Shown: positions 7,372-21,147, numbered from the stretch's first letter. The stretch is DNA of 24,000 bases from Paucimonas sp. (GCA_035627375.1 DASPLX010000034.1:43033-67032), one strand, 5' to 3'. Numbers and translations are program-made. The notes: a model not told the origin generated them from the letters alone.

Positions 7372-8604
7372 ATGAAATCTTCGACAAATATCCTGGCCGG
7401 CGCCGTGCTCGGCATGGCGGTCGGCACGAGCGCCCATGCGCTCGATCTGCGCGGCTTGCTCGATGCCCGCATCGTCGCCGCCGATGCCCGGCACGGCTGG
7501 ACCCGCGACGGCCTCGGCAAGATGCGCTACGACCAGGCTTCGGACGGCATCCGCCTGGGGCAAGCCTTCGTGCGCGCCGACGGTGAGCCGCTCGACGCGG
7601 TGACGGTATCCGTCGTGCTGAGCGCCGCGGACGACCGGCATGGAGCGCTCGATGTCAACGAGGCATGGATCGGATGGAATCCGCTCCCTGCCGGTCCCTG
7701 GAAGACGCGCGTGAAGGCGGGCGCATTCTTCCCGGCGACGAGCCTGGAGATCGATTACGACAGCGTCGGCTGGACGCCGGTCCGAACGGTTTCCAGCTCG
7801 GCGCTCAACAGCTGGATCGGCGAAGAATTGCGCACCAAGGGCATCGAATTCAACCTGTCGCGGCGCGGCCGCTTCGCCGGCTCGCCGCATGACGTCGGCT
7901 TCACCGTCGCGCTGTTCAACGGCAACGATCCGGCCGGCACGCTGATCGCCTGGCGCGGCTGGGCGATCAGCGACCGCATCAGCGGCTTGTCTGAACCGTT
8001 GCGCCTGGCGGACCTGCCGGTCTACCGGCCGGACGGCGCCATCGCGAAGCAGAGCCGGACCATCCATCTGTTCCGTGAGATCGACGGCCGGGCCGGATAT
8101 TACGCCGGCGCGCAATACGCTTATGGCGAGCGGCTCGAAGCCGCCGTCCTGCATTACGACAACCGCGGCGATCCGCTGATCGTAAAGAATGGACAATACA
8201 GCTGGACCACGCGTTTCGACCACCTGAGCCTGCGCCTGCGTCCCGGCGGCGGCTGGGAACTGGCCATGCAGGCGATGCAGGGCTCGACCGTCATGGGACG
8301 GGCCGCCGTCCGGCTCGACTACGGCGCCTGGTATCTGCTCGCCAGCCATCCGCTCGGCGGCGGAACGGCGGCGCTGCGTTACGACCGGTTCCGGGCCCGG
8401 GAAGACGATATCCTGCCGTCCGATCCCAACGGCGAAGACGGCAGCGCCTGGGCGTTGGCCTACTCCTACCGCATCAACGACGCGCTGAGCCTGGTTGCCG
8501 AAGCGCTGCTGGTGCGCAGCACCCGGCCGGCGCGCGCGCTGGTCGGCGAGAATCCGCGCCTGACGGAACGCGGCGTGACGGCGGCGTTGCGCTGGCAGTT
8601 CTGA
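7372..8604 (+). CDS. Outer-membrane beta-barrel protein, unknown family
   Basis: ATG at 7372. Signal peptide MKSSTNILAGAVLGMAVGTSAHA. Alternating amphipathic beta-strand pattern, and a C-terminal OMP signature ...GVTAALRWQF ending in Phe. Confidence 0.65.
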   Translation: MKSSTNILAGAVLGMAVGTSAHALDLRGLLDARIVAADARHGWTRDGLGKMRYDQASDGIRLGQAFVRADGEPLDAVTVSVVLSAADDRHGALDVNEAWIGWNPLPAGPWKTRVKAGAFFPATSLEIDYDSVGWTPVRTVSSSALNSWIGEELRTKGIEFNLSRRGRFAGSPHDVGFTVALFNGNDPAGTLIAWRGWAISDRISGLSEPLRLADLPVYRPDGAIAKQSRTIHLFREIDGRAGYYAGAQYAYGERLEAAVLHYDNRGDPLIVKNGQYSWTTRFDHLSLRLRPGGGWELAMQAMQGSTVMGRAAVRLDYGAWYLLASHPLGGGTAALRYDRFRAREDDILPSDPNGEDGSAWALAYSYRINDALSLVAEALLVRSTRPARALVGENPRLTERGVTAALRWQF

Positions 8605-8623
8605 CCGCCGGCCTTCGGCTCGG

Positions 8624-9754
8624 CTACTCGGACCAGGCCTCCAGCGCGGCGTTCTCGGCGGCGGGTGCGACTTGCGCCGGCGCCGCCTCCGTGCGCGGCG
8701 GCGCGGCCGCGGCCGCATGCGACGCGCGCTGCAATTGCTTGGGCGATCTGCCGAACCAGCGCTTGCAGGCGCGATGAAACGCGCTGGGCTCGGAGAATCC
8801 GAGCTGGAAGCTCAGCTTCTTCAGCGAGATCTGTCCGCCGCTCAGATACTGCTGCGCCATCGCGCGCCGCGTGTCGTCCACGATCCGGGTGAAATTGGTG
8901 CCTTCCTCGGACAGCCTGCGCTGCAGCGTGCGCTCGCTGATCATCAGCCGCTTCGCGACTTCCTCGCGCAGCGGTTCGCCCTTGGCCAGCATGCCGGCCA
9001 GGAGGCGCTGCACGCGCGCCGAGAAACTCATGCTCGCGCGCTGCAGCAGCGCCGATTCGGCGAACATGCGCAAGGTCCAGTCGGCGGCCGCCGGCGGCGG
9101 CGTCGGGAACGAGATCCGGAGGTCGGCATCGGCGAATTCGACCGTATTGGCGGCGGCATCGAAATGCACCGGGCAGCCGAAGGCTTCCGCGATCGCCTGC
9201 GCTTGCGGCGGACGGGGATAGGCATAGGTGACCAGCAGCGGCCTCAAGCCGTCGCACGCCGCCGCCGAGCGCAGGGTGCGCAACACCATCGACCAGACGA
9301 AATCGTAGCGCTGTCTCGGCACCGGCCGGATCCCGGCCGCCAGGCGCAGCGTGACGCGCGTGCTGGCGGGAGCGCGCTGGGGCAGGTGCTCGATCGCGCT
9401 CTGCACGGTCGGCGACAGCAGCGGCGTATAGCGCACCAGGTTGTCGATCGCCGTCTTGATGTCCGGCGACAGCAGCATGATATGTCCCATCAGGCCGAGC
9501 CAGCCGAGTTGATAGGGCGACGACACGCGAAAGGCGATCAGCGGATCGCCCGAGCGCTGTGCCAGCGTCTCCCACAGATGGCTCAGCTTGTCCGACAGCG
9601 CGGCCGGATCGCTTTCGATGATCCCGGCCGCTCCGCCGGAGTCGATATCGCGGTCGAGGCCGGTCAACCGGAACAGTTCGTCGGCGTCGAAGCCGCAGGC
9701 CGCGAGGCGGGCCTTCATGCCGCGCACCAGATCGCTTGCAGAGGAATAGCTCAT
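8624..9754 (-). CDS. AraC family transcriptional regulator (N-terminal AraC-type effector domain plus C-terminal double HTH)
   Basis: 376 aa, with strong RBS CAGGAGGG. C-terminal HTH_18-type region: REEVAKRLMISERTLQRRLSEEGTNFTRIVDDTRRAMAQQYL...LKKLSFQLGFSEPSAFHRACKRWFGRSP. It ends in an extra Ala/Pro-rich tail of about 40 aa. Confidence 0.9.
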   Translation of the reverse strand: MSYSSASDLVRGMKARLAACGFDADELFRLTGLDRDIDSGGAAGIIESDPAALSDKLSHLWETLAQRSGDPLIAFRVSSPYQLGWLGLMGHIMLLSPDIKTAIDNLVRYTPLLSPTVQSAIEHLPQRAPASTRVTLRLAAGIRPVPRQRYDFVWSMVLRTLRSAAACDGLRPLLVTYAYPRPPQAQAIAEAFGCPVHFDAAANTVEFADADLRISFPTPPPAAADWTLRMFAESALLQRASMSFSARVQRLLAGMLAKGEPLREEVAKRLMISERTLQRRLSEEGTNFTRIVDDTRRAMAQQYLSGGQISLKKLSFQLGFSEPSAFHRACKRWFGRSPKQLQRASHAAAAAPPRTEAAPAQVAPAAENAALEAWSE

Positions 9755-9800
9755 CGTTTCCCTCCTGAAGAAGATTCCATGCTTCGTTGCCGGAGGCGGG

Positions 9801-10391
9801 TCACGGCGCGACGGCGCTGCGCAGCCGCATGCCGATACGCTGCTGCAGCTCTTGCAGTTTCGGATCGATGACGGGGCGCGTGTCGGCCGCGATCTTCTCG
9901 CCGAGCGACTTCTGCAATTCAGGCGCCAGGGCTTCGAACTTGCGTTTCACAGGCGATTCGAGCATCGCGATGATCTGCCGCAGTTCATCCTCGGAAAAGC
10001 GTTCCGCCAGGAGCGGCGCGACCGTCGACGGGATCAGCTTTTGCGCGCTGCCGGTCACGATCGGCGCGGAGTCTTCGAGGAATTTCTTCGCATCGGCGGC
10101 GATCTCGCGCAGCGCGGCGTCGCGCTTCTCCGGCGTGGCGCGGCCTTGCAGCATCGCGCGCGCCTGGTTGACGGCGTCGGCCACCGGTTCTTGCAGCATC
10201 GATTGCCCGAGCGTTTCCACGTGCCACAGCTTGAGCAGGCGCTGCACCAGCTCTTGCTTGGCCGGCGTGATCGGCGCCGAAGCCGGCGCCGATGCCGGCT
10301 TGGCGTCGGCCGCGGCGGCCTGCAGGTTGGCGCAGAGCAGCGCGACGGCGAGGGCGGATTTCAGAACGGCTGCGGAAAATCTGTTCGGCAT
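9801..10391 (-). CDS. Periplasmic alpha-helical protein, DUF2059-like
   Basis: This is only the last 196 codons of track ORF 9801..12014. ATG at 10391 is preceded by AGGAGA. Signal peptide MPNRFSAAVLKSALAVALLCANLQAAAA, then an Ala/Pro linker. The segment SEDELRQIIAMLESPVKRKFEALAPEL resembles the DUF2059 ExSPxGxK block (from memory). Confidence 0.7.
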   Translation of the reverse strand: MPNRFSAAVLKSALAVALLCANLQAAAADAKPASAPASAPITPAKQELVQRLLKLWHVETLGQSMLQEPVADAVNQARAMLQGRATPEKRDAALREIAADAKKFLEDSAPIVTGSAQKLIPSTVAPLLAERFSEDELRQIIAMLESPVKRKFEALAPELQKSLGEKIAADTRPVIDPKLQELQQRIGMRLRSAVAP

Positions 10392-10453
10392 GGCGGTCTC
10401 CTGTCGGTGATTCATACGATGTCGGTCCAAGGCGCTCGGCGGCGGACGCCGCC

Positions 10454-12097
10454 TCAAAAGCGCTGCGTGAAGCTCGCGCCCACGTAGCGCACGCGCAGGT
10501 CGCCGGCGACATCGAGGCCGGCGTACGGGTTGTAAATGATGTTGAAGAAGTTGCTGCAGTTGAGGTTGCAATCGGTATTGGCCGGCACGTTGAACTTGCC
10601 GCGCATGTAGCTGGCGCCGACGTTGAGGTCGCGGCCGCCGCCGAGCTTCATGTTGAAGCCGAGGCTCATGACCTTGGTGTCCGGCAGCGGCGCGATCAGG
10701 TCGATCTTGTCGGCCGGCACCGAGCTCTTGCGCGGCTCGTAGCCGGCGCGCAGCGTGATCCGGCGGCTGAGTTCCGCCTGGATGCCGAAGCCCCAATGCA
10801 CCACGTTGCGGTAGCCGCGCGGAATCTTCAGCTGCGTCGCGTCGGCAAATCCGAACATGCGCGCCACTTCCAGCAGCCGGATGCTCTGGTCGAACTTGAA
10901 GGTCAGCGTGTCCCAGGCACGCCAGTTGGTGTAGTTGGCGTCGATGTTGAGCTGCAGCCGGCGCGTCGGCTTGAATTTCACGCCGATCTGCAAGTGGGCG
11001 GGAAACGGAATGACGGCGGTCATGTTGCCGCTTTGCGTTTCCGGTATCCGGTCCGGCAAGCCGAGCGTGGCCGCGATGATCGGCCCTTGCAGGCTCGCAT
11101 AGAGTCCCTCGACGAACTTGCGCACCATCGCCTCGGTGTTGAAGGTGTAGCGGCCGCTGTAGACGGTCTTCGATCCACCCTGGTAGACGATGCCGAGCGC
11201 GAAGCGGTCCGACGGTTCCCATAGCAAGCCGAGGTTGAGCGTCGGATCGACCGGCGAGGTCATCTCCATCTGCATCGCCGCCACTTTCTTGAAGGGATTC
11301 AGCCGGCCTTCCGGGCCGCCGCTGCACAAGCCCACCGTGAGCGTGTCGATCGGATTGCCGCCGTCCTCCGGGCACCAGCCTCGCTGCGCCTTGCCGGTGA
11401 TGCCGAGCAGGGGATTGGGCATGCGCATGTCGGTGTCGATCACGAACGCCGCATGCGCGATCGGCACCGCGGCGCCGACGCGCAGCGTGTCCGAGAACTT
11501 GTAGCCGATCGCCGGCGACAGGTACACGAGCCGCTGCAGCTGCACCACCTTGCCGTCGTAGCGGCCGGGATCGTTCGGATCCTTGCTGCGGTCGACCGAG
11601 AACGCCTGCGGGATATAGGACAGCGTCGCGAACGTGAACGGCGAGCCGGGGTTGTTGTACGCCAGGCCGAGGCCGGGAATGACGACCCCGGGCAGCTTCC
11701 ACTTCAGCAAGCCGGCCACCGGCAGCAGCAGCCGCTGGCGCACCTTGCCGGTACGCGCGCCGTCGAGCGGATCGTCGGTCCAGCCGCCGATGTCGAAGCC
11801 GGGCGGTTGCGTGAACGAGGCGCCGGTGCGGATCGAGGCGCCCCAGAGGGTGAAAGTTTCCGACCTGCCTTCCATGCGCGCCAGGCCGGCCGGATTGAAG
11901 TGGATCGATTCGATGCCGGGCGGATCGGCGGTGACCGCGTTGCCGAGCGACATGGCGGTGGCACTGGTGGCGAGATTCTCGGTCAACGCGGCATGCGCGG
12001 GCAGCGGCGCGCACGGCAGCAGTCCGGCCGCCAGCAAGGCGGCCAGCCTTGGTCCGCGGAACCGTCGATGCCGGCGGCGCTGGGAACGTCGTGTCAT
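10454..12097 (-). CDS. FadL/TodX/OMPP1-family outer-membrane transport barrel (unusually long, 547 aa)
   Basis: RBS GGAGAG. Signal peptide ending PAHA|AL. The N-terminal hatch motif SATAMSLGNAVTADPPGIESIHFNPAGLA is the conserved NPAGL block of the FadL family. The C-terminus GASFTQRF ends in Phe. Two Cys pairs lie in predicted loops (GWCPEDGG...VGLCSGG; NTDCNLNCSNF). Confidence 0.85.
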   Translation of the reverse strand: MTRRSQRRRHRRFRGPRLAALLAAGLLPCAPLPAHAALTENLATSATAMSLGNAVTADPPGIESIHFNPAGLARMEGRSETFTLWGASIRTGASFTQPPGFDIGGWTDDPLDGARTGKVRQRLLLPVAGLLKWKLPGVVIPGLGLAYNNPGSPFTFATLSYIPQAFSVDRSKDPNDPGRYDGKVVQLQRLVYLSPAIGYKFSDTLRVGAAVPIAHAAFVIDTDMRMPNPLLGITGKAQRGWCPEDGGNPIDTLTVGLCSGGPEGRLNPFKKVAAMQMEMTSPVDPTLNLGLLWEPSDRFALGIVYQGGSKTVYSGRYTFNTEAMVRKFVEGLYASLQGPIIAATLGLPDRIPETQSGNMTAVIPFPAHLQIGVKFKPTRRLQLNIDANYTNWRAWDTLTFKFDQSIRLLEVARMFGFADATQLKIPRGYRNVVHWGFGIQAELSRRITLRAGYEPRKSSVPADKIDLIAPLPDTKVMSLGFNMKLGGGRDLNVGASYMRGKFNVPANTDCNLNCSNFFNIIYNPYAGLDVAGDLRVRYVGASFTQRF

Positions 12098-12110
12098 GTC
12101 ACTCTCCGGT

Positions 12111-13136
12111 CTACAGGCTCAGCGGCAAGCTCAGCCCGAGCGTGAAATTCGGCGAGTCGTTGGTGAGGCCGACGCCGACCGTGATGTTGAGCGTGGTTTT
12201 CGGCGAGATGCGGTAACCGAGGCCGAAATTGAGGATGCCGGCCGTCTGCGTCGTGGTCTTGATCGTCCTGCCGTCGCGGAAGCGCAGCTTGGAGCCGGCC
12301 GAAATCGATTCCTGCAGCGATATCGAGGTCGAGATGTCGTACGACAAGGCGTAGGCGAAACCGAGCCCGAAGCCGAAGCTCATCCCCGGCTCGACCCTGG
12401 TCAGGACGCGGCCGTTGCGGATCTGCGACAGGTGTTTCGCCGGCGCGCTATAGGTCAGGTTGATCGAGCCGAACAGCGCGACCGGATCGACGATATGGTT
12501 GAGATTCAGGCCGGCGCTCAGCGAGGCGACGCCGGAGCCGGTGGCCAGGCCCTTTTCGGCGTCGACCTTGAACGGGCTGCGTCCGGTGGGCAGGCGCAGC
12601 AGCGTGGTGGCCGTCGCCGAGGGACGGCCGCGGCGGGTTTCTAGCGGTTGCCAGCGCAGGCCGAGGCCGATGTCGCCGACCGAGTGCGAGGTTCCTTCGT
12701 ACGCCCGGTTCTGCGAATACTTGCTCACCAGCGGCAGGCTGATGCTGCCGGTCAGGTTGTTCTGGATGCCGTAGTCGACCGTCAGCGTGTTGGTGGCCGT
12801 GTGCGAACTGTCGTTCTCGATGCTGAACAGCGTGAGTTCGCCCGACGACAGGTCGGCGTTGATCCGTTCCTGACCGATGTAGGTGTAGCCGAAGTCGTAG
12901 GTTGCCTGCAGCCTGCCGCGCTTGATCAGCGAGTATTGCTTGTCGACCGCCGTCAGGGTCTGCTTGAGCAAAGTCGATTGGTCGGCGTCGCCTTCCTTCG
13001 GCGCCAGGGCGTCGCGCGCGGCGCTGGCGCTGGCGGCGGCCGCGGGAGCGGCCGGCGTCGCGGCGGGCGGCTGCTGCGCCGCGGCCGGCAGCGCGAACAG
13101 GGCGGCGATCACTCCCAGCGGGGGACGAATCTTCAT
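12111..13136 (-). CDS. Outer-membrane beta-barrel 'transporter' protein (MetA-pathway/PF13557-like, FapF-like architecture)
   Basis: Strong RBS AAGGAG. Signal peptide MKIRPPLGVIAALFALPAAA, then an Ala/Pro-rich linker (QQPPAATPAAPAAAASASAA), a short predicted helix (STLLKQTLTAVDKQYSLIKRG), then a regular amphipathic strand pattern to the C-terminus. It stops 13 nt before the FadL-like gene. Confidence 0.75.
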   Translation of the reverse strand: MKIRPPLGVIAALFALPAAAQQPPAATPAAPAAAASASAARDALAPKEGDADQSTLLKQTLTAVDKQYSLIKRGRLQATYDFGYTYIGQERINADLSSGELTLFSIENDSSHTATNTLTVDYGIQNNLTGSISLPLVSKYSQNRAYEGTSHSVGDIGLGLRWQPLETRRGRPSATATTLLRLPTGRSPFKVDAEKGLATGSGVASLSAGLNLNHIVDPVALFGSINLTYSAPAKHLSQIRNGRVLTRVEPGMSFGFGLGFAYALSYDISTSISLQESISAGSKLRFRDGRTIKTTTQTAGILNFGLGYRISPKTTLNITVGVGLTNDSPNFTLGLSLPLSL

Positions 13137-13263
13137 GAGAACTCCTTGTCGATGATGAACTAACGGTGCCGATGCAAAAGCGCCGGCGAGGAAAACCCGG
13201 TCCGGCCGCTGATCGATGCGGCCGGATTGCTTTCAAGGCGCGCGCCGGGCGTGCGCGATACGT

Positions 13264-14028
13264 TTAACGTCGGCGCAAATAACTGCCGCTGGCGCCCGAA
13301 TGGAGGGCGCGTTCCAGCAGGTAGGCATTGCCCAGCGGCGCGAGGATGGCCCGGTCTTTAACGCGGTCCATATCGAATACGCCCAGCTCCCGGTCGGAGA
13401 GGGCGAGTTGTCCGGCCGGCGGACGGTTCTTCGGCGGGTAGACGATGAACAGGGTATTCCGGTCCCACAGCTTTCCGAATTCGTCGATCGGGATCACGAT
13501 GTTGCCGGCCGATGGATCGGCGATGAACGCCAGGCCGTCGCGCACGCCGCGCAGCACGACGAAGTGCTTGAAGCCGGCATAGTCGATCGGCACGATGGCC
13601 GGATGTTCGAGCGTGAGCAAGTCCTTGACCTCGGCGCGAAAGCCCGCGCTGTCCACGTCGAGCGAAGCGACGTAGCGCTTCATGTCGAGCAGCGAAAAGC
13701 CGCGGCGTTCGATGATCTTCTGTTTCTCGCCGCGCTCGAGCATGCCTTCCATCGCCTGCTGTTCGCTGACGTCGATGCCGATGTGATGCTTGAGCAGGGT
13801 CACGAGCGCCGCCGAACCGCAGCTATAGTCGTAGGCCTGGCGCACGATGTTGCGGTATTTCAATTCGGAAAACGGTTCGATCTCGACCGATTGCGCGACC
13901 GGGCCGGCGGCGGCCGCCGCCAGCGGGAGTTCGAACTGATTCTTCGGACGATCGGCCGGCTCATGCGTGGCCCATGCGCCGGAGCCGGCGATCAGGATGG
14001 CGATCGCGCCGAGCAACATTCCCAACAT
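13264..14028 (-). CDS. Free-standing periplasmic C39-family cysteine peptidase
   Basis: RBS GGAAGGGG. N-terminal signal/anchor MLGMLLGAIAILIAGSGAWA. C39 catalytic blocks are intact: VRQAYDYSCGSAALVTLLKHH (Gln64, Cys70; Cys codon at 13819-13821), FKHFVVLRGV (His155) and FIADPSAGN (Asp171). There is no fused ABC transporter domain. Confidence 0.9.
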   Translation of the reverse strand: MLGMLLGAIAILIAGSGAWATHEPADRPKNQFELPLAAAAAGPVAQSVEIEPFSELKYRNIVRQAYDYSCGSAALVTLLKHHIGIDVSEQQAMEGMLERGEKQKIIERRGFSLLDMKRYVASLDVDSAGFRAEVKDLLTLEHPAIVPIDYAGFKHFVVLRGVRDGLAFIADPSAGNIVIPIDEFGKLWDRNTLFIVYPPKNRPPAGQLALSDRELGVFDMDRVKDRAILAPLGNAYLLERALHSGASGSYLRRR

Positions 14029-14211
14029 AGTGTCCCCTTCCTGTCGCGCCCGGCCTTCCCGCTCTTCGGCGCGATGTCTCTCGCGTTCCGATCTTGCCGG
14101 GAAGCGGCGCGGTAGCCGGTGAAGATTTCGTATCGGCGGGCCGCCTTTTCCATCGGATCATGCGGCGCCGCAAGCTTGCTCAAATGTACGGGGAGAGCGG
14201 GACGGCGCTTT

Positions 14212-14229
14212 CATCCGTTCGGATGAATA
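14212..14229. promoter_or_regulatory. Perfect 8+2+8 palindrome TTCATCCG-TT-CGGATGAA (candidate operator upstream of the C39 operon)
   Basis: Read directly from the sequence. It lies between the regulator stop (14323) and the C39 start (14028). Each arm contains GGATGA, the core of the E. coli MalT box. Confidence 0.35.
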
Positions 14230-14322
14230 AGGGTTGTGCGAGGTCAATCGCCTACGTCGCGCCGGTAAGCAGATGTAACAGAGCGAGGACGTCTTTCCCC
14301 GCAAAAATGAACAGGAAAGATT

Positions 14323-17115
14323 TCAGGAAAGAATCGCCCGCTTGCGCGCGATCGAAATCGCTTCCGTGCGGTTGTGCGCGCCGAGCTTCAGGTTGATGTT
14401 GCGCAGATGGGTCTTGACGGTCGTGATGGAGACGAACAGCTTCTCGGCGATCGCTTGATTGCCGCAACCTTGCGCCAGGAGTTTCAGTACGTCGAGTTCG
14501 CGGCCGGTCAATTCGCTTTCGCTCATCAGCGCCTGCAGGCGCGGCTCGTGCGCGGCCGCCGGCAGGTGGCGCATGAAGGGCGCATGGATGGCGGCGACGA
14601 AACGGTATAGCGCCGCATGCTCTTCGCCGGGCGGATCCTGCATGCCTTCCAGCAGGTCGCGGATCAGGGCCAGCAGCGCGGGGCCTTCATCCTTGAAGAG
14701 GCGCACGAATCCTTCCGCCTGCGCTTCCTGCAGCGTTTCGCGCATGGTGCGCAGGGCAGGATTGCGTTGGCCGGCATGGGATAGCGCGAGCGCATGCAAT
14801 ACCTTGACCCGCAGGGCATAGCGCACGCGGCCGCGCGCATGGACGTCCTGCAAATGCTCCTTGAACAGCGGCAGGGTCATGGCCGCCTGGCCGCAATGGA
14901 CTTGCAGGCGCAGATAGGAAAGCATCGGCGTTTCGAGGTCGTTCGCGATCATCTGCACGCCGTTGTATTGCCAGGCCGGCGCGGCGCCGACCAGGGCCTG
15001 CAGCGAACGCGCGGATTCGATGTCGCCGTCGAGCAGGGCGCAGCGCGCGCGTTCCAGTCGGGCGACGTCGATCACGCGCGGCAGGTTGCGCTGCATGCCG
15101 AGCTGCTCCAGGTCGAGCAGGGTTTGCAAGGCGTCGTTGCCGTTGCGTTCGGCGCGCAGGATGCGCGCGTAGATGACGTGGCTGGCGATCAGCTGGTCGG
15201 GAATGCCGGCATCCTTGACCAGCGGCAGATAGTGCGTCAGCAGCCGCTTGGCGTCGTCGAGCTGGTCGGTCTCGTAGAGCACTTCGGCCAGGTAGAGGCT
15301 GGCGAAGCCGGTATCGGCGCCGTAGCGCGGATTCGTCGACCCGGCATCGGCGCCGATCAGGGCGCGCAGGCGCGGGCCGGTGCTGCGCAGGCGCACGTGC
15401 GTGTCGTTGCCGATCAAGGCGCGCAGGCGGGCGCCGGCGGCGCGCAGCCGGCCTTGCAGGATGTCGAGCATGGCGTGTATATAGCCCGCTACCCCGACCG
15501 AAAACAATGGCCCGACCGCCGAATGTTCGCGCGTCGCCTGGTCGAGCAGGACGCGCGCTTCCTGGTAGCGGCCGATGGTGGCGTAGTAGTAGGCGCAACC
15601 GATCATCAGCATGCTGCGCAGCAGGGGTTCGCCGGCGGCGCCGCCAAGAATGTGCGGGTCTTCCCACATCGGCGCGGTTTGCTCGATGCGGTCGAGCATC
15701 ACCAGGCTGAAGGTTTTCAGCACCAGGTAGGTCGGATGCGAGATCGAGGCGGTTCGCGGCGGCACGCCGCCGGGATTGACCGCTGCCTCCAGCAGCGCCA
15801 GCGCCTCGGCGCTGCGGTTGATGTGGATCAGCGACCAGGCATGGACCGACAGCAGTTGCGGGCGGGCGGCGACGGCGCCGCGGTCGAGCGCATCGAACCA
15901 GCGCGCGAGCAGGCGCACCCTGCCTTGCAGGAACAAGGCCTGCGCGTGACGATCGAGCAGGTCGAGCGCGAGCTCGCTATCGGCGGCGGCGATCGCATGC
16001 TCGATCGCGTGCGTGGGATGTCCTTGTTCGTCATACCAGCCGGCCGCGCGCCGGTGCAGCACGATGGACAAGCCCGGATGCCGCTGTTCGAGCTGGGCGC
16101 GCAGAAAGCCGGCGAACAACGGGTGATAGGTGAACCAGACGTGCTGCTCGTCGACCGCGGTGATGAACATGTTGGAACGTTCCACTTCGCGGATCAGCGC
16201 GTCGCCGTCGTCGCGGCCGGTGACGGCGTTGCAGCTGTCGGCGCAGAACTTGTGCAGGATGCTGGTCTGCAGGATGAAGTCCTGCACATGGGGCGGCCGG
16301 TGCGACAGCACGTCTTCGGCAAGATAGGCGGACACGACCGAATTGCAGCCCGAGAAGTTGCGGATGAAGCGCTTCGGATCTTCATGGCTTTCCAGTGCCA
16401 TCGACGATAGCCATAGCGCCGCGGCCCAGCCGCCGGTGATCTCGTGGAAGCGCTCGACCTCGCCGCGCTCGAGCTTGAGCCGGCGCTTCTCGCACAGGAA
16501 TTGCCCGGTCTCGGCCAGCGAGAAGCGCAATTGCTCCGCGCCGATTTCGAGCAGTTGCTGGCGCGCGCGCAGGCGCGCCAAGCTTAGCGCCGGCTGCTCG
16601 CGCGAACCGATCACGATGCGCTGCTGCGGGCTCAGCATGTCGATCAATTGCTGGATCACCGACAGCGCCGCCGGATTGTGCAGGTGTTCGAATTCGTCGA
16701 GGATCAGGAGGAAGGGCAGCGGCGTGGCCGCGATCGCCTGCGTCAGCTCGAACCCGCTGCCGCCGTCGAGCGGGCGCAAGGCGTGCTGCCCGGCCGGATG
16801 GAGCGTCGCGAATGCCTGCGCCAGGCAGGTCATGAAGCGGTCGAGATCGTTGTCGCCGGCGTCGAGCGTGAGCCAGGCGACCGCGCTGTCGGCGATCGAT
16901 ACGTCGTACAGGTGACGCAGCAGCGTGCTCTTGCCGAATCCGGCCGGCGCTTCCACCAGGATCAGTTTCGCCGTTTCCGCATGGCGCATGCGCTCCAACA
17001 GCCGGTCGCGCGCCACGAAAGGCGCGGCCATGGCTGGCGGTTTCAGCTTCGACGGCGCCGGTCGAAGTACTGACGGTCTTTCCGGCGCGTAATTAGGCAG
17101 TGCGGACGATCGCAT
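14323..17115 (-). CDS. MalT/LAL-type large ATP-binding LuxR-family transcriptional regulator (STAND NTPase + helical sensor + LuxR HTH)
   Basis: About 930 aa. The N-terminus PSKLKPPAMAAPFVARDRLLERM parallels MalT PSKLSRP...VRERLL. Walker A is EAPAGFGKSTLL and Walker B is FLLILDEFEHL. C-terminal LuxR HTH: LTGRELDVLKLLAQGCGNQAIAEKLFVSITTVKTHLRNINLKLG. Start is ATG at 17115 (a GTG at 17118 is also possible). Confidence 0.9.
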   Translation of the reverse strand: MRSSALPNYAPERPSVLRPAPSKLKPPAMAAPFVARDRLLERMRHAETAKLILVEAPAGFGKSTLLRHLYDVSIADSAVAWLTLDAGDNDLDRFMTCLAQAFATLHPAGQHALRPLDGGSGFELTQAIAATPLPFLLILDEFEHLHNPAALSVIQQLIDMLSPQQRIVIGSREQPALSLARLRARQQLLEIGAEQLRFSLAETGQFLCEKRRLKLERGEVERFHEITGGWAAALWLSSMALESHEDPKRFIRNFSGCNSVVSAYLAEDVLSHRPPHVQDFILQTSILHKFCADSCNAVTGRDDGDALIREVERSNMFITAVDEQHVWFTYHPLFAGFLRAQLEQRHPGLSIVLHRRAAGWYDEQGHPTHAIEHAIAAADSELALDLLDRHAQALFLQGRVRLLARWFDALDRGAVAARPQLLSVHAWSLIHINRSAEALALLEAAVNPGGVPPRTASISHPTYLVLKTFSLVMLDRIEQTAPMWEDPHILGGAAGEPLLRSMLMIGCAYYYATIGRYQEARVLLDQATREHSAVGPLFSVGVAGYIHAMLDILQGRLRAAGARLRALIGNDTHVRLRSTGPRLRALIGADAGSTNPRYGADTGFASLYLAEVLYETDQLDDAKRLLTHYLPLVKDAGIPDQLIASHVIYARILRAERNGNDALQTLLDLEQLGMQRNLPRVIDVARLERARCALLDGDIESARSLQALVGAAPAWQYNGVQMIANDLETPMLSYLRLQVHCGQAAMTLPLFKEHLQDVHARGRVRYALRVKVLHALALSHAGQRNPALRTMRETLQEAQAEGFVRLFKDEGPALLALIRDLLEGMQDPPGEEHAALYRFVAAIHAPFMRHLPAAAHEPRLQALMSESELTGRELDVLKLLAQGCGNQAIAEKLFVSITTVKTHLRNINLKLGAHNRTEAISIARKRAILS
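15352..15447. repeat. Imperfect in-frame tandem duplication, 57-bp period, inside the regulator gene
   Basis: GCCGATCAGGGCGCGCAGGCGCGGGCCGGTGCTGCGCAG (15352-15390) versus GCCGATCAAGGCGCGCAGGCGGGCGCCGGCGGCGCGCAG (15409-15447). By my count 33 of 39 positions are identical. The encoded peptides are ..ARLRALIGNDTHV.. and ..PRLRALIGADAGS... Confidence 0.6.
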
Positions 17116-17291
17116 CACCGGACACGGAAATGAAAGGGAATGAGTTACCGCCCTGCTCGAGAACGGCGGCTAGTGGTTCGATATCTCCCGATTGCCTTGG
17201 CATGAATCGCAAATCGGGGTATGGCGGGCCACTAGACCACTAGGCTTCCGAGGCGGAGGTAACAGGTTACAGAGGATTGTCAAAAATGCTA

Positions 17292-17307
17292 TAGAGCGAT
17301 CGCTCTA
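17292..17307. promoter_or_regulatory. Perfect 16-bp palindrome TAGAGCGATCGCTCTA in the divergent control region
   Basis: Read directly. It lies in the AT-richer 606-bp intergenic region between the regulator gene and the secreted-protein operon. This is a candidate dimeric-regulator operator. Confidence 0.35.
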
Positions 17308-17646
17308 ATTGCCGTGCTTTTTTGGAATTCCGGCTGATTGCAGGAAAGAGAAGGCAAGCGAGGGCGTATTCGAGCGCAAGGGAGGACACTCTTCCGGTAT
17401 CCCTACTGAAGATAGGCATGGTCTTGTCTCCGTATATTCTGGCCGGTCTGGCGCCGGCTCATTATGAGGTGGCTATTATGCCGCAAAAAAATTGCCGCAC
17501 AACAGTTCCCGGGAGCGTGGATTTTTCCTTATGGAACAACAAGATGTGGAACGGAAACCGAATTCGCGCGCGTGGCTCTCGCTGCCATGCGTTTGGCTTC
17601 GGAGGTCAGCCCGCGAGGGCACGGGAATTCTGGCCACTGTCCTAAC

Positions 17647-17695
17647 ATGAAGGCTCTTAATATTGTCTCAATGTTAAGAGTTGCAGTGCCTTCAT
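17647..17695 (+). promoter_or_regulatory. Composite inverted repeat / leader hairpin about 30 nt upstream of the first secreted-protein gene
   Basis: Outer arms ATGAAGGC (17647-17654) and GCCTTCAT (17688-17695). Inner arms TCTTAA (17655-17660) and TTAAGA (17674-17679). The right outer arm reads GGATGAAGG on the minus strand, the same heptamer as the 14212 palindrome. Confidence 0.35.
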
Positions 17696-17724
17696 CCTTC
17701 CGAAATTCCTCTAGGAGACCGACT

Positions 17725-18255
17725 ATGAAATTTAGCTTGATCAAGAAAACCGCCATCGCCGCTGCGTTGTCCTCGTTCGCCCTGGGCGCGTCCGCCATGA
17801 CGACGATCGACGATGCGGACCTATCCAAGGTCAGCGGCCAGGACGGCGTGTCGATCGCCGTCGACCTGAATATCAATGTCGGTGAATTCAGGTACACCGA
17901 TACCGATACGGACGGCGGTTCGGTCAGCTTCAACAACATTCGGACGACCGGTACGATCGCCGCGACGCTGGACGTGATCAGCGGCGCGACTTTCGCGACC
18001 CTGGGTACCGGCGAAGCCTACACCGTGCTCGGCCTCGACCCGACCGCGGCCAATACGCAAGCCAACATCGCGGCCTTCTACGGCGGCGGCGACGTCGTGA
18101 AGATCGCCATCCCGGATCTGGACGTCACGGCCGGCCATACGCTGAGCCAGACCATCGACAGCATCCGGATGGGCGGCTCGACCAAGTCCTTCGGCAGCTT
18201 CGCGATGAACAACATCCGTCTCCAGGGCACGACGGCTTACATCTGGGCTCACTAA
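17725..18255 (+). CDS. Secreted subunit-like protein A (176 aa): Sec signal peptide + double-glycine-leader-like motif; candidate major subunit (DUF6160/FilA-like from memory)
   Basis: AGGAG lies 7 nt upstream of ATG 17725. Signal peptide MKFSLIKKTAIAAALSSFALGASA, then MTTIDDADLSKVSGQ|DGVSIAV. Mature part has no Cys, is Thr/Gly/Asp/Ile-rich and has repeated xNNIRxxGT blocks. The C-terminus is ...TAYIWAH. Confidence 0.85.
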   Translation: MKFSLIKKTAIAAALSSFALGASAMTTIDDADLSKVSGQDGVSIAVDLNINVGEFRYTDTDTDGGSVSFNNIRTTGTIAATLDVISGATFATLGTGEAYTVLGLDPTAANTQANIAAFYGGGDVVKIAIPDLDVTAGHTLSQTIDSIRMGGSTKSFGSFAMNNIRLQGTTAYIWAH

Positions 18256-18307
18256 GCCGGAACGGCGGCGCAATTCCCCGGGCCGCGTTCGCCGGCGTAA
18301 CACGGCA

Positions 18308-18340
18308 CCTCCCGGCAGCGGCCGGGAGGCCGTCTTTCCA
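18308..18340 (+). terminator. GC-rich hairpin after gene A (partial terminator/attenuator candidate)
   Basis: CCTCCCGGC-AGCG-GCCGGGAGG (9-bp perfect stem, 4-nt loop) followed by CCGTCTTTCC. The U-tract is weak, so read-through into genes B-D is likely. Confidence 0.5.
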
Positions 18341-18361
18341 ACGTCATTTCCCAGCGAGATC

Positions 18362-19138
18362 ATGATGCTTGCCCGCTTCTTGCCAGCCGGATGCCTGCTC
18401 GCCTTGGTATGCGCCGCTCCGGCATCGGCGCAACTGCGTCCCATGAGCGAACCCGAGCTGTCGGACATGCACGCTCAAGGCTTGATCGAATTGAGCAACA
18501 GCAGCCATGGCGGCTTCGATTTCACGCGCATCGCGTTCGGCGCGGACGTGCGATTGAATGCGAATTTCCGCAATATCCGTCTCGGCGAATATCACTACGC
18601 GACGCGCGACGGCAGCGGCGCCGACCTCGACATCCCGCTGCTGCGATTCGGCCGCACCGACGGCACGGCGGCGCAGCGCGTGGTGGAGATCACCAATCCC
18701 TATTTCGAATTCATCTATCGCAACGCGGGCAACGCGGCCCAACGAGAAATCGTCGGCATCCGCTTCGGCTTCGACGGCATCGCCGGCGACGTCGGCCTGG
18801 CGATGACGACGCTATCCGGCTCGCTGCGCATCGACGGCGGGGCGGCCGGGGTCCTCGATTCGCGCACCGATGCCGGCGGCGGCAAGCGCTGGGACGGCGC
18901 GTGCGCGGCGCCGTGCCTGAACCTGAACCAGATCGGCGGCGTGCGCGCCGGCGATCTGAGCGGTCCGAGCCGCGACTTCTGGGTCGCGGCGGTCAAGGTG
19001 CCGGTGCAATTCCAGGCGCCGTCCGGCACGACCCAGGTGCCGGATGTCGCGCAACCGGGCTTCTGGCTCAATTGGCGCGACAAGCTCGCCGCCATCAACG
19101 TCAACGGCGCGCCGCCGCCCAACGTCGCCGGAAAATGA
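18362..19138 (+). CDS. Secreted paralog B (258 aa) with degenerate GG-leader-like motif
   Basis: Signal peptide MMLARFLPAGCLLALVCAAPASA, then QLRPMSEPELSDMHAQ|GLIEL. It shares the FRNIRLG block with A, C and D. Mature part contains one Cys pair (GACAAPC). Its stop overlaps the gene C start. Confidence 0.8.
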   Translation: MMLARFLPAGCLLALVCAAPASAQLRPMSEPELSDMHAQGLIELSNSSHGGFDFTRIAFGADVRLNANFRNIRLGEYHYATRDGSGADLDIPLLRFGRTDGTAAQRVVEITNPYFEFIYRNAGNAAQREIVGIRFGFDGIAGDVGLAMTTLSGSLRIDGGAAGVLDSRTDAGGGKRWDGACAAPCLNLNQIGGVRAGDLSGPSRDFWVAAVKVPVQFQAPSGTTQVPDVAQPGFWLNWRDKLAAINVNGAPPPNVAGK

Positions 19139-20049
19139 CGATGAACGGGCCGATCCGACGCTGGCTCCGCTTTGCGGCCGCGACCTGTTGCGCGGGCATC
19201 GCAGCGGGAAGCGCCATGCCTGTCGCTCATGCGCAGGGCTTGCGCCCGCTCGACGACGCCGCGTTGTCGGCGGTGCAGGGGCGCGACGGCCTGAGCTTCG
19301 ACCTCGCGAACTTCTCGATGGCGGGCGACGCCCGCATCACCTATTACGCACCGGCGCCATCGACCGCTAGCGCCTGGGTCGGCAACTTGTATGCGGCGCG
19401 TTCCGACGATCCCGCCAACCCGTTCGGCGATCCCTATCGTCTCGACATCGTGCGGCGCGGCGGCGGCCTGGCCGATGTCGTCGAGCTCGCCTTTCCGGTC
19501 AACGCCAACGGCGCGCAGCGCTGGCAATTCGCCTACGACTGGGGCGTTGCCGCCGGCGGCATCGATGCTGAGGGCGGCAGCGTCGTATTCAAGGATGCGG
19601 TGTTCTACGGCGGCGGCATGCAATGGTCGACGCCGCGCGACGTCGAGGGCATGGCGTTCGGGCTCGCGCTGCGCCTCGATATCGGCAACCTGTTGCTGCG
19701 TCCGCGCGGACGCGGCGATATCGGCGCCGTCGATGGCGCCGCCGAGCAGATGAATATCCGCGGCGTGCGCATCGGCGCCGTCGACGGCGCCGGCAATTTC
19801 CTGGGTACGCCATGGCGCATCGCGGACGTGACGGCGCAACCCGGGATCGTCAACGCCGTACCGGACGCCAGCGGCACGCCGCGCCTGCATGTCGGCATCG
19901 ATTGGCCGGACACGGGCGCCGCCGCGCTCGGCGGACTGCAGATCGACAATCTTTCGTTCAAGAGCGATGTGACCGGCAATCTCGATCTCGGCTCGAGCCG
20001 TATCGGTTCGATGCAGATCCAGTATCTCGATATCAAATTTCGACCTTAG
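19135..20049 (+). CDS. Secreted paralog C (304 aa) with GG-leader-like motif
   Basis: ATG at 19135 overlaps the gene B stop (ATGA). This is only the last 304 codons of track ORF 18391..20049. Signal peptide ...AGSAMPVAHA, then QGLRPLDDAALSAVQGR|DGLSFDL. It contains an MNIRGVRIG block. Confidence 0.8.
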   Translation: MTMNGPIRRWLRFAAATCCAGIAAGSAMPVAHAQGLRPLDDAALSAVQGRDGLSFDLANFSMAGDARITYYAPAPSTASAWVGNLYAARSDDPANPFGDPYRLDIVRRGGGLADVVELAFPVNANGAQRWQFAYDWGVAAGGIDAEGGSVVFKDAVFYGGGMQWSTPRDVEGMAFGLALRLDIGNLLLRPRGRGDIGAVDGAAEQMNIRGVRIGAVDGAGNFLGTPWRIADVTAQPGIVNAVPDASGTPRLHVGIDWPDTGAAALGGLQIDNLSFKSDVTGNLDLGSSRIGSMQIQYLDIKFRP

Positions 20050-20052
20050 GCC

Positions 20053-20514
20053 ATGTTGAACCTGTTCATCCTCTTGCTATTGTGGTGCTGCTGCAGCCTG
20101 GCGGCGCAGGGAGCGCGTTCGCTGAACGACGAAGAGCTCGCGCAAATCAGCGGCGGCGACGGCGTCAGCATGGCGGTGCACCTGGCGCTGAACGATCCGG
20201 CCTCGTCCGGCGGCGGGAGCGAGAACCGGATCGCGATCGGTACCGCGGTCGATGGGCAGACCAATTACATCGTCGTCCGGAATCTGCGCGGCACGATCGA
20301 TATGTTCGCCGTCAATCTGAGCGTGCGGAAGAAGCCGGACGGCGGCGACTATCTTGCGCTCGGCCTGCCAGGCTATATCCGCTTCGGCGGCTTCGGCTTC
20401 GATTCCCTGAGCGTGCAGGCCGATCCTTCGGGGCCGGTCACGCAGAGCCTCGGACGGATCGATATCAACGGCACGCTCTCGATGCAAGGACAACTGCGCC
20501 TGTGGGCGCACTGA
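20053..20514 (+). CDS. Secreted paralog D (153 aa) with canonical double-glycine motif
   Basis: Starts 3 nt after the gene C stop. Hydrophobic N-terminus MLNLFILLLLWCCCSLAAQG, then ARSLNDEELAQISGG|DGVSMAV (motif codons 20122-20157). VRNLRGT block. C-terminus ...QLRLWAH, like protein A. Confidence 0.8.
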   Translation: MLNLFILLLLWCCCSLAAQGARSLNDEELAQISGGDGVSMAVHLALNDPASSGGGSENRIAIGTAVDGQTNYIVVRNLRGTIDMFAVNLSVRKKPDGGDYLALGLPGYIRFGGFGFDSLSVQADPSGPVTQSLGRIDINGTLSMQGQLRLWAH

Positions 20515-20739: not shown

Positions 20740-21147
20740 ATGATATCGACACCCCCTATTCACGACCGCTCATTGACCGTACTCGTCATCGAGGACAACC
20801 GAGACCTTGCCCGCCTGTTCTGCGATCTGCTCGAGGTCATGGGATGCATCGCTCATGTCGCCTGGAGCGCGCAGGCGGGTCTCGAGTTGGCGCTGGAAAA
20901 GACGCCGGACCTGATTTTCTGCGACCTCGGCATGCCCGGCGACAAGGACGGTTTCGACGTGGCGGCGGAAGTGCGCGGCCATCAGTCGCTCAAAGATACC
21001 TGGCTCATCGCCGTGACCGGTTTCTCGGAAGCGGAGACCCATGAGCGGGCGCGCAATGCCGGCTTCAACCGGGTATTCGCCAAGCCGGTCAAATTCGCGC
21101 AATTGCAAAACGTTCTGAACGATTTCAAGATCGCGCATCCTCTCTGA
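20740..21147 (+). CDS. Single-domain response regulator (CheY-like receiver only)
   Basis: 135 aa. Receiver signature residues are present: VLVIEDN (acidic pocket), LIFCDLGMPG (phospho-acceptor Asp62), IAVTG and FAKPV (Lys). There is no output domain and no histidine kinase in the window. Confidence 0.85.
   Translation: MISTPPIHDRSLTVLVIEDNRDLARLFCDLLEVMGCIAHVAWSAQAGLELALEKTPDLIFCDLGMPGDKDGFDVAAEVRGHQSLKDTWLIAVTGFSEAETHERARNAGFNRVFAKPVKFAQLQNVLNDFKIAHPL

Follow-up and report, generated by a model that had tools for sequence, protein, structure and literature searches.

We analyzed a 24,000-nucleotide stretch of Paucimonas sp. DNA (GCA_035627375.1, DASPLX010000034.1:43033-67032; hereafter "the window", in which coordinates are counted). 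Four plus-strand open reading frames (ORFs) in it, genes A-D, encode proteins that carry a bacteriocin-type leader segment directly behind a Sec-type signal peptide. The leader and its spacing are conserved across related loci, the genes are linked to one for a stand-alone C39 cysteine peptidase with an intact catalytic set, and a homologue of protein A builds a filament whose ordered chain starts at the first residue after the leader (+1). In the interpretation that we favor, with a probability of about 70%, a Paucimonas-like betaproteobacterium has a pilus system of the Fil type (DUF6160) for which A-D serve as secreted subunits or cargo, and A-D would pass from Sec export through signal peptidase I and removal of the leader by the FilB-like C39 peptidase to export and polymerization. 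The gene family, the Fil name, the C39 annotation, and the filament structure are already known. In the searchable literature, we found no description of the leader or of a FilB substrate, nor of a bacteriocin-type helix that stands behind a Sec signal, ends in Gly-Gln, and is tied to a stand-alone C39 peptidase in Fil- and Fap-type loci.

The substrate of the periplasmic C39 peptidases has been an open question since FapD was shown in 2017 to be essential for amyloid secretion; this locus, its family, and the Fap-type loci point to a motif for recognition and cleavage. The same observations suggest a biogenesis model for the Fil/DUF6160 fibres, which are found in Acinetobacter baumannii and are common among soil Oxalobacteraceae; for one of these fibres, a cryo-electron microscopy structure but no assembly pathway has been described. 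A bacteriocin-type leader reused behind a Sec signal also puts such proteins at risk of being miscalled as bacteriocins, and is relevant to the engineering of secretion tags.

The leader and its conservation

Signal peptides were read by eye from their n, h, and c regions, as a hydrophobic stretch ending in a small-x-small site. Each of A-D has such a signal peptide; the next 15-17 residues show the pattern P-[LIM]-x-D-x-E-L-S-x-V-x-G-[Q/R/G/A], and D-G-[V/I]-S comes after them (Table 1). A check of the sequence returned the four ORFs and their leader segments as they had been written in an earlier reading made without comparative data (the sequence-only reading), which had proposed a propeptide resembling double-glycine (GG) leaders behind a Sec signal on proteins of 150-300 residues and had called for homologue alignments. 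These alignments bear the proposal out in all four classes and in the wider family. Orthologues were taken from 80 Oxalobacteraceae loci, retrieved with the C39 protein and classed by BLAST, and the segment and its spacing are kept in 80/80 of these loci. A family regular expression matches 101/113 orthologues of A, 69/76 of B, 67/74 of C, and 67/72 of D, along with 33 copies of a fifth related class (class E), and none of ~12,200 other ORFs; for a stricter core expression, the chance background is 2 matches per 2.02 million residues.

Numbered from the proposed cut, the orthologues of the 80 loci have Pro at -13, Leu/Ile/Met at -12, an almost invariant Asp/Glu at -10, Glu/Asp at -8 (Ala in class C), Leu/Met at -7, Ser/Ala at -6, Val/Ile at -4 (loose in class B), and Gly, now and then Ala, at -2. 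The residue at -1 depends on the class: Gln/Arg in A, Gln in B, Arg/Gly/Ala in C (74 orthologues), and Ala/Gly/Arg/Gln in D. Beyond the cut, positions +1 and +2 are Asp-Gly, except that B has Gly at +1 and no Asp, and positions +3 to +5 are [Val/Ile]-Ser-[Phe/Ile]. Class B has its own version, with 74 orthologues carrying [LM]S[DE]x[ED][LM]Sxxx[GA]Q followed by G[LF].

The pattern extends well beyond these loci. A profile search of 1.84 billion representative proteins yielded 471 clusters at 50% identity, with 142 complete-looking representatives; 112 of these match the motif expression, about 12 more have Leu at -8, and the remainder are N-terminal fragments. Among the 112, position -10 is Asp in 109, -7 is Leu/Met in all 112, -2 is Gly in 105, -1 is Gln in 100, and +2 is Gly in 107, and in the wider family the predicted cut lies 33-40 residues from Met1 (mode 37). 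Because of this per-position conservation and spacing, the motif is a hallmark of the DUF6160/FilA family; indeed, since the Pfam match spans residues 5-82 of A, the DUF6160 model is in essence the motif. With Gln so frequent at -1, the family site is therefore Gly-Gln before Asp-Gly rather than Gly-Gly. A true Gly-Gly is present in protein D, to which the term "double-glycine" used in the sequence-only reading still applies, but it is rare in the family.

The resemblance to the double-glycine leaders of class II bacteriocins, competence peptides, and lanthipeptides, handled by ComA, LahT, and PCAT1, lies in the length left after signal removal (15-17 residues), the hydrophobic residues at -12, -7, and -4, Glu-Leu at -8/-7, Gly at -2, and a linked protease with the same fold and catalytic residues. 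There are also differences from the leaders of peptidase-containing ATP-binding cassette (ABC) transporters (PCATs) and of ABC-transporter maturation and secretion (AMS) proteins. Classical GG leaders sit at the extreme N-terminus of Sec-independent peptides, whereas the motif of A-D stands behind a hydrophobic signal sequence of 20-33 residues; the enzyme has no ABC transporter fusion and is predicted to lie outside the cytoplasm; -1 is far more often Gln or Arg than Gly; Asp at -10 and Asp-Gly at +1/+2 are also conserved; and the cargo is a fibre subunit of 120-250 residues. Membership in the GG-leader family at the level of hidden Markov models was considered and dropped, as the TIGR01847 cut-off was not reached and a scan of six GG-bearing orthologues and four FilA proteins gave no matches.

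How far the relationship among A-D extends past the leader is a separate matter. The sequence-only reading had described four tandem paralogs, which holds for A and D: with the leader removed, they are homologous through their C-terminal ~57 residues (hhalign probability 86%, E 5e-6), and A also aligns with the fifth class (hhalign 95%). It fails for B and C, which were not detectably similar to A, D, or each other (hhalign, <10%). Because mature B and C are unrelated to A at the profile level, the shared module is the N-terminal part: the signal peptide, the leader, and a few residues at the mature start, attached to differing cargo domains. A leader common to non-homologous mature domains would look like a portable processing or targeting tag. 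Scores against PF19657 (gathering cut-off 27 bits) agree, at 82 bits for A, 27.5 for C in its N-terminal region only, 18 for D (under the cut-off), and no match for B. By these scores, A is a clear DUF6160/FilA member and C a borderline one, and B and D count as members through the shared leader and synteny only. Gene A has 683 homologues, and its best match, like that of the C39 gene, is a 100% identical protein of a Paucimonas sp. metagenome-assembled genome (Oxalobacteraceae). B has no match in Pfam, NCBIfam, or the PDB, and no PDB relatives of B, C, or D were found.

The peptidase, the filament, and related loci

The FilB-like protein is recognized by PF03412 (67.7 bits, cut-off 22); its best NCBIfam match is FilB at 220 bits and its second FapD at 125 bits, both under the equivalog cut-offs. 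The catalytic set Gln64, Cys70, His155, and Asp171 is invariant in 121 sequences. The AlphaFold2 (AF2) core, residues 60-200, is predicted with a local distance difference test score (pLDDT) of 75-89 and superposes on substrate-bound PCAT1, on ComA-PEP, and on the LahT150-leader complex 6MPZ with a target-normalized TM-score of ~0.8 and a root-mean-square deviation of 2.1-2.7 A. Foldseek comparison of the model with ComA, LahT150, and PCAT1 gives E-values of 1e-9 to 1e-7, and a sequence search recovers the same proteins. An ABC transporter part was found neither in the 254-residue C39 protein nor among the window genes scanned.

A hydrophobic N-terminal stretch, residues 2-20 here, is present in 119/120 FilB-like orthologues, and we infer that FilB faces the periplasm. 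The called start of the A. indicus filB leaves out a similar segment (MLEIALGSAL...), visible 10 codons upstream. FapD, a relative of FilB, carries a Sec signal and is active in the periplasm, and amyloid secretion depends on its catalytic Cys (PMC5557850); its substrate was left open, with FapE suspected (PMC5557850, PMC6173800). The coupling of the leader genes to a stand-alone C39 enzyme with an export or anchor segment and intact Gln, Cys, His, and Asp supports the sequence-only reading, which had placed the neighboring C39 enzyme in the periplasm, and periplasmic action has a precedent in FapD (PMC5557850).

The FilB tail shows a feature of its own. At residues ~206-222 (within 13264-13420), an invariant leader-like segment, LALSDRELGVFDMDR, repeats the leader register in its Leu, Asp, Glu-Leu, and hydrophobic positions and has no Gly at -2; a regular expression finds it in 59/80 orthologues, and the A. 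indicus FilB counterpart is FLALQDSDMRHVEDA. It could be a pseudo-substrate or a docking element, but the idea that the tail docks as a pseudo-substrate found no support, the AF2 model being disordered there (pLDDT <50).

Protein A is modelled by AF2 (pLDDT 83) as a signal helix, a short leader helix, and a beta-rich core from residue 42. In the PDB, only 9XFV ("pilus-like-alpha") matches it significantly by structure (Foldseek E 3e-11, 36% identity), and the sequence match covers the whole mature protein (E 1.9e-25). 9XFV is a helical filament with a rise of 11.7 A, reconstructed from karst-cave drip water (PNAS 2026, PMC12956863). The full-length UniProt precursor A0A257CJ09 guided the model building; the filament served as a test object for a handedness method, and the paper does not discuss processing, genes, or assembly (PMC12956863). 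The chain starts DGVSIAGDLNINIG and ends with the native C-terminus, ...WMWAH. In alignments, the first residue of the chain falls on Asp40 of A and on the residue directly after SGQ or TGQ in the closest precursors compared, which makes 9XFV a Gln(-1)-type homologue of A; the N-terminus DGVSIA is common to both. Because a homologue of A builds this filament, A is probably a pilin and the DUF6160/FilA family probably forms pili; for the window protein itself, the filament is known from a homologue at the identity and E-value just given. As the 9XFV chain begins at +1, the signal and the leader lie outside the ordered fibre. The modelled N-terminus is exactly that expected from the bond proposed in the sequence-only reading and is consistent with cleavage, although it does not prove a cut, because the folded core begins there anyway. 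At the other end, there is a conserved C-terminal His after a small and an aromatic or aliphatic residue: IWAH in A (18241-18252), LWAH in D (20500-20511), and MWAH in 9XFV. Acinetobacter FilA proteins (P0390-P0459) end in ISGH, IRGH, or IKGH, and classes B and C differ (AGK, KFRP).

Two outer-membrane proteins are encoded beside filB. The FilC-like barrel scores 292.6 bits with the NCBIfam FilC model and 93.8 bits with FapF, its second match, and matches the FapF crystal structures 5O65, 5O67, and 5O68 (E 1e-22). The FilD-like protein scores 137 bits with PF03349 and 420.8 bits with the FilD model, and matches FadL-family structures in the PDB (3DWO and TbuX). The NCBIfam Fil models (NF050077-NF050080) are narrow and of the "exception" type, and the FilA, FilB, FilC, and FilD scores of 35, 220, 293, and 421 bits all fall under the curated cut-offs of 220, 475, 630, and 970. 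The window proteins are therefore relatives of Fil and not equivalogs. The name Fil comes from "filamentous type III pili" (cited in PMC3203104).

A close parallel is the "putative pilus system" filABCDEF of Acinetobacter, with identities of 51%, 39%, and 34% to FilB, FilC, and FilD of A. indicus. As there, DUF6160, C39, FapF-like, and FadL-like genes are linked (10454-20514 here), and the same set occurs in A. indicus (locus L081) and A. baumannii (L083). Acinetobacter FilA has the same layout, with AFA, then MQAMDDSALSATTGQ, then DGLSIG in A. indicus, and a C-terminal His; A. baumannii FilA also carries the motif beside filBCD. The gene order in A. indicus is filA-filB-filC-filD-filE-filF, and the motif is found in FilA only, FilE having a plain signal peptide and FilF being a lipoprotein. 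The window has four leader-bearing genes in place of one, and A-D lie on the opposite strand from filBCD, with a MalT-type regulator between them. No homologue of FilE (FilE_C) or FilF was found among the window genes scanned or the four leader-bearing proteins, a search that did not take in the whole window. The locus is a new, rearranged relative of Fil, marked by its four leader-bearing genes, its MalT-type regulator, and the absence of FilE/FilF-like proteins among the scanned genes. In the A. baumannii locus (strain 2021CK-01407, 10914-12587), filD is split into ORFs 10914-12083 and 12087-12587 and is possibly a pseudogene; PLSDB lists the record, evidently a chromosome, as a 4.09-Mb "plasmid".

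A fifth motif-bearing gene, absent from this window, lies downstream of filD in ~60/80 Oxalobacteraceae loci. Its product, class E, has a ~65-residue cytoplasmic domain that contains two LGxxL...L..AL..Q-like repeats; a single membrane helix and a linker connect this to the leader, behind which comes a pilin-like C-terminal domain homologous to the C-terminus of A. The leader ends in AQ before G, for example LQALTEEELGETSAQ followed by GL (examples are a plus-strand ORF at offset 14235 in L017 and one at 14042 in L014). One possible role for class E is that of a primer or anchor subunit, held in the membrane and responsive to signals. Its pilin-like domain could join the fibre only if it is cut from the anchor, which argues for a cleavage site over a docking helix. 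An assignment of the N-terminal domain as MshEN-like is not claimed, as Pfam gave just a weak DUF4388 match.

Similar leaders appear in a small sample of seven Fap-type loci (Polymorphobacter, Croceicoccus, Cupriavidus, Vibrio, Photobacterium, Aeromonas, and Indioceanicola), defined by a FapD/FilB-like peptidase and a FapF-like barrel with no FilD. In 7/7, the gene right after the peptidase (the fapE position) encodes a signal peptide with a similar leader 18-27 residues later, the weaker matches having been found by eye (Table 1). These leaders end in RGG or RGR, often followed by IRLPDG, and two small upstream subunits also bear the leader. The Fap-type leaders agree with the published loss of the FapE N-terminus (PMC5557850) and suggest where the FapD site in FapE lies. 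The window shares with Pseudomonas Fap a FapF-type barrel and a stand-alone C39 peptidase of the kind that acts in the periplasm and is needed there for secretion (PMC5557850). It differs in several respects. Proteins A-D lack an Asn/Gln repeat pattern, and no Asn/Gln-repeat amyloid subunit of the FapB/FapC type was found among the fil genes and the neighbors scanned (again, not the whole window), whereas the comparison Fap-type loci do have repeat subunits. The window also has the additional FadL-like FilD, its family makes an ordered helical pilus (9XFV) and not amyloid, and the Fap model scores are below the equivalog cut-offs (FapD 125 vs 330 bits, FapF 94 vs 700 bits).

Proposed assembly route and its alternatives

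In the route that we favor, Sec would carry the precursors across the inner membrane, and their signal peptides would be taken off by signal peptidase I. This would leave a propeptide of 15-17 residues, predicted to form a short amphipathic helix with hydrophobic residues at -12, -7, and -4, acidic residues at -10 and -8, and Gly(-2)-X(-1) as its last two residues (X being Gln, Arg, Gly, or Ala). A periplasm-facing FilB would hold this helix as the PCAT, ComA, and LahT peptidase domains hold double-glycine leaders, and would cleave after X, baring an Asp-Gly-[Val/Ile]-Ser N-terminus. Candidate FilB substrates would be MTTIDDADLSKVSGQDGVSIAVD, the leaders of B, C, and D, and sites of the type MTTIDDADLSKVSGQ followed by DGVSIA. 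The matured subunits may then exit through the FapF-like FilC, with the FadL-like FilD helping or anchoring, and polymerize, A probably as the shaft or major subunit and B, C, and D as minor or specialized ones. The cut by FilB, the passage through FilC, and the roles given to B, C, and D are our inferences.

The leader may also keep subunits from polymerizing in the periplasm, an analogy only, with type V pili. In the type V pili of Bacteroidota, a Sec-exported subunit is inert until a dedicated protease removes an N-terminal segment, which licenses polymerization. Type V pilins are lipoproteins cut by Arg- or Lys-gingipains, with another fold and other machinery, whereas A-D have no lipobox; the likeness is only in the logic.

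Several observations weigh against this route. The C39 leader peptidases that have been characterized, to our knowledge, want Gly, Ala, or Ser at -1, and Gln or Arg there would need a wider S1 pocket. The N-terminal segment of FilB, MLGMLLGAIAILIAGSGAWA (13969-14028), lacks a positively charged n-region, in the orthologues as well, and may be an uncleaved anchor and not a standard signal peptide. Protein D alone among the sequences tested comes near the TIGR01847 bacteriocin_sig model (consensus LSxxELxxIxGG; 15.6 bits vs a cut-off of 15.7), and A, B, and C do not match it. In the AF2 model of A, the helix on leader residues 30-37 has a pLDDT of only ~57. Finally, the +1 start of 9XFV could reflect the onset of the folded core, with a retained leader disordered.

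The last point leads to the strongest alternative, in which the helix is kept as a docking, chaperoning, or anti-polymerization element, disordered on the fibre or targeting FilB or FilC, and FilB is a chaperone or cuts elsewhere. The mostly Gln or Arg residue at -1, unlike that of classical sites, fits this view, as does a folded core that begins at ~+3 in AF2, so that the +1 start is no proof of a cut; in addition, inactive C39-like domains bind substrates in type I secretion, according to work cited in PMC5557850. On the other hand, a binding-only role sits poorly with the invariance of the FilB catalytic residues in 121 sequences and with the requirement of FapD for its catalytic Cys (PMC5557850). 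The near-invariance of Gly(-2) and of +1/+2 is that of a scissile site rather than of a helix end, and in class E, where the motif follows a membrane anchor, the pilin-like domain could not leave the cell uncut. We therefore consider this alternative unlikely. The sequence-only reading had hedged toward a docking helix wherever -1 is not Gly; that hedge is disfavored by 9XFV, a Gln(-1) homologue that starts at +1, and by the need to release class E. What stands of its interpretation as a whole is the placement of the motif and the coupling to the C39 enzyme, with the cut by that enzyme a probable further step, and what has to be revised is the hedge, the four-way paralogy, and the double-glycine wording.

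Leader removal by another periplasmic protease ranks next, and we regard it as improbable. FilB would then process part of the machinery, such as the FilC plug or linker, as was proposed for FapD acting on FapF; Rouse et al. did consider FapF a possible FapD target (PMC5557850). The leader, however, has the helix geometry of a GG-peptidase substrate (hydrophobic -12/-7/-4, Gly at -2), and FilB has the matching fold. Genes that bear the motif accompany filB in 80/80 Oxalobacteraceae loci, in the two Acinetobacter loci, and in those of the Fap type, and no further protease gene is conserved in the locus.

It is very improbable that the N-terminal segment is a donor strand or extension kept in the fibre in the manner of chaperone-usher pili. 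A conserved N-terminal segment on pilus subunits and the 11.7 A rise of 9XFV, which implies heavy interdigitation, would suit it, but the segment is absent from the 9XFV model despite the full-length precursor guide, is predicted to be helical and acidic and not a beta strand, and has no chaperone or usher gene beside it among the window genes scanned. Least credible of all is that A-D are bacteriocin-like toxins or signalling peptides, or that the resemblance is due to chance: the weak matches of D (TIGR01847, 15.6 bits; PF10439, 13.9 bits) are set against proteins of 150-300 residues with Sec signals, the lack of ABC/PCAT transporter and immunity genes among the window genes scanned, a filament-forming homologue of A, and a motif too conserved and specific for coincidence.

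Cleavage by FilB thus remains our preferred account of the window. A broader proposal, which we hold tentatively and at slightly less than even odds, is that the FapD and FilB peptidases share one rule: a short leader behind the signal peptide, h-x-D/S-x-E-L-x-x-h-x-G-[Q/R/G], would let these enzymes recognize fibre subunits exported by Sec and cleave them at its end, a double-glycine system relaxed at -1 and moved to the periplasm. If true, the leader would be a transferable tag that licenses export through barrels of the FapF type, Fil would be a separate fibre pathway beside chaperone-usher, type IV, type V, and curli, and the long-sought substrate site of FapD in FapE would have a name.

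Layout of the locus

The start of C overlaps the stop of B by ATGA (19135-19138), and D begins 3 nucleotides past the stop of C (Table 1). The gap between A and B holds a GC-rich stem-loop of -24.6 kcal/mol in RNA folding (z = -3.8 against shuffled sequences), with CCGTCTTTCC right after it. It was not called by a terminator scan because the T run is too short, and a consensus scan for promoters and terminators gave nothing useful. The hairpin could act as an attenuator and so determine how much of the minor subunits is made relative to the major one; with the B/C overlap and the short C/D spacing, it suggests high expression of A and attenuated, translationally coupled expression of B, C, and D.

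Table 1 Features of the window, and leader-bearing ORFs at the fapE position of the Fap-type loci
Feature	Position	Strand	Description
Gene A	17725-18255	+	176 aa precursor, probably of the major pilin, DUF6160/FilA family; C-terminus ...YIWAH
Gene A signal peptide	codons 1-24, 17725-17796	+	MKFSLIKKTAIAAALSSFALGASA
Gene A leader	codons 25-39, 17797-17841	+	MTTIDDADLSKVSGQ; predicted mature start Asp40 (17842), DGVS
Stem-loop, GC-rich	18302-18333	+	within the 106-nucleotide A-B gap
Gene B	18362-19138	+	258 aa leader-bearing protein; presumed minor subunit or accessory cargo
Gene B signal peptide	codons 1-23	+	...CAAPASA
Gene B leader	codons 24-39, 18431-18478	+	QLRPMSEPELSDMHAQ; predicted mature protein from Gly40, GLIE
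Gene C	19135-20049	+	304 aa leader-bearing protein
Gene C signal peptide	codons 1-33	+	...AMPVAHA
Gene C leader	codons 34-50, 19234-19284	+	QGLRPLDDAALSAVQGR; predicted mature protein from Asp51, DGLS
Gene D	20053-20514	+	153 aa small pilin-like protein; C-terminus ...RLWAH
Gene D signal peptide	codons 1-20	+	MLNLFILLLLWCCCSLAAQG
Gene D leader	codons 21-35, 20113-20157	+	ARSLNDEELAQISGG; predicted mature protein from Asp36, DGVS
FilB-like C39 cysteine peptidase, stand-alone	13264-14028	-	254 aa; proposed leader peptidase
FilC-like FapF-related outer-membrane barrel	12111-13136	-	proposed export channel
FilD-like OmpP1/FadL/TodX-family outer-membrane protein	10454-12097	-	candidate second channel or anchor
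MalT/LuxR-type STAND regulator	14323-17118	-	between filB and A, divergent from A; NCBIfam MalT 366.7 bits; Pfam TPR_MalT and GerE
DUF2059 gene with signal peptide	9801-10424	-	next to filD on its downstream side, at the place taken in other genomes by the fifth leader-bearing gene
Fap-type locus L084	ORF 9365-10735		leader-bearing
Fap-type locus L085	ORF 9600-10283; further 8604-8918		ITDYELATMRGG followed by IRLPDG
Fap-type locus L086	ORF 9632-10207		LSNSSLEEYRGG followed by FQI
Fap-type locus L087	ORF 9582-10103		LTDDEMSSLRGG followed by FVS
Fap-type locus L088	ORF 9537-10304		LSEEVLARQRGG followed by IRLPGG
Fap-type locus L089	ORF 9575-10231		LADGELAHLRGR followed by YVS
Fap-type locus L090	ORF 9595-10053		VDELDRSVGR followed by LLLPDG

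The number of tandem A copies varies across loci (L061, L062, L066, and others), from one in this window up to four in L062, and B, C, and D are mostly single, which fits A as the major subunit. To judge from its position, the MalT-type gene may regulate the locus; just 11/80 related loci have a homologue. Relative to filBCD, A-D are upstream and on the same strand in Massilia-type loci, and on the opposite strand in this window and the Noviherbaspirillum loci. Gene D is followed by an orphan response-regulator receiver gene (20740-21147, plus strand).

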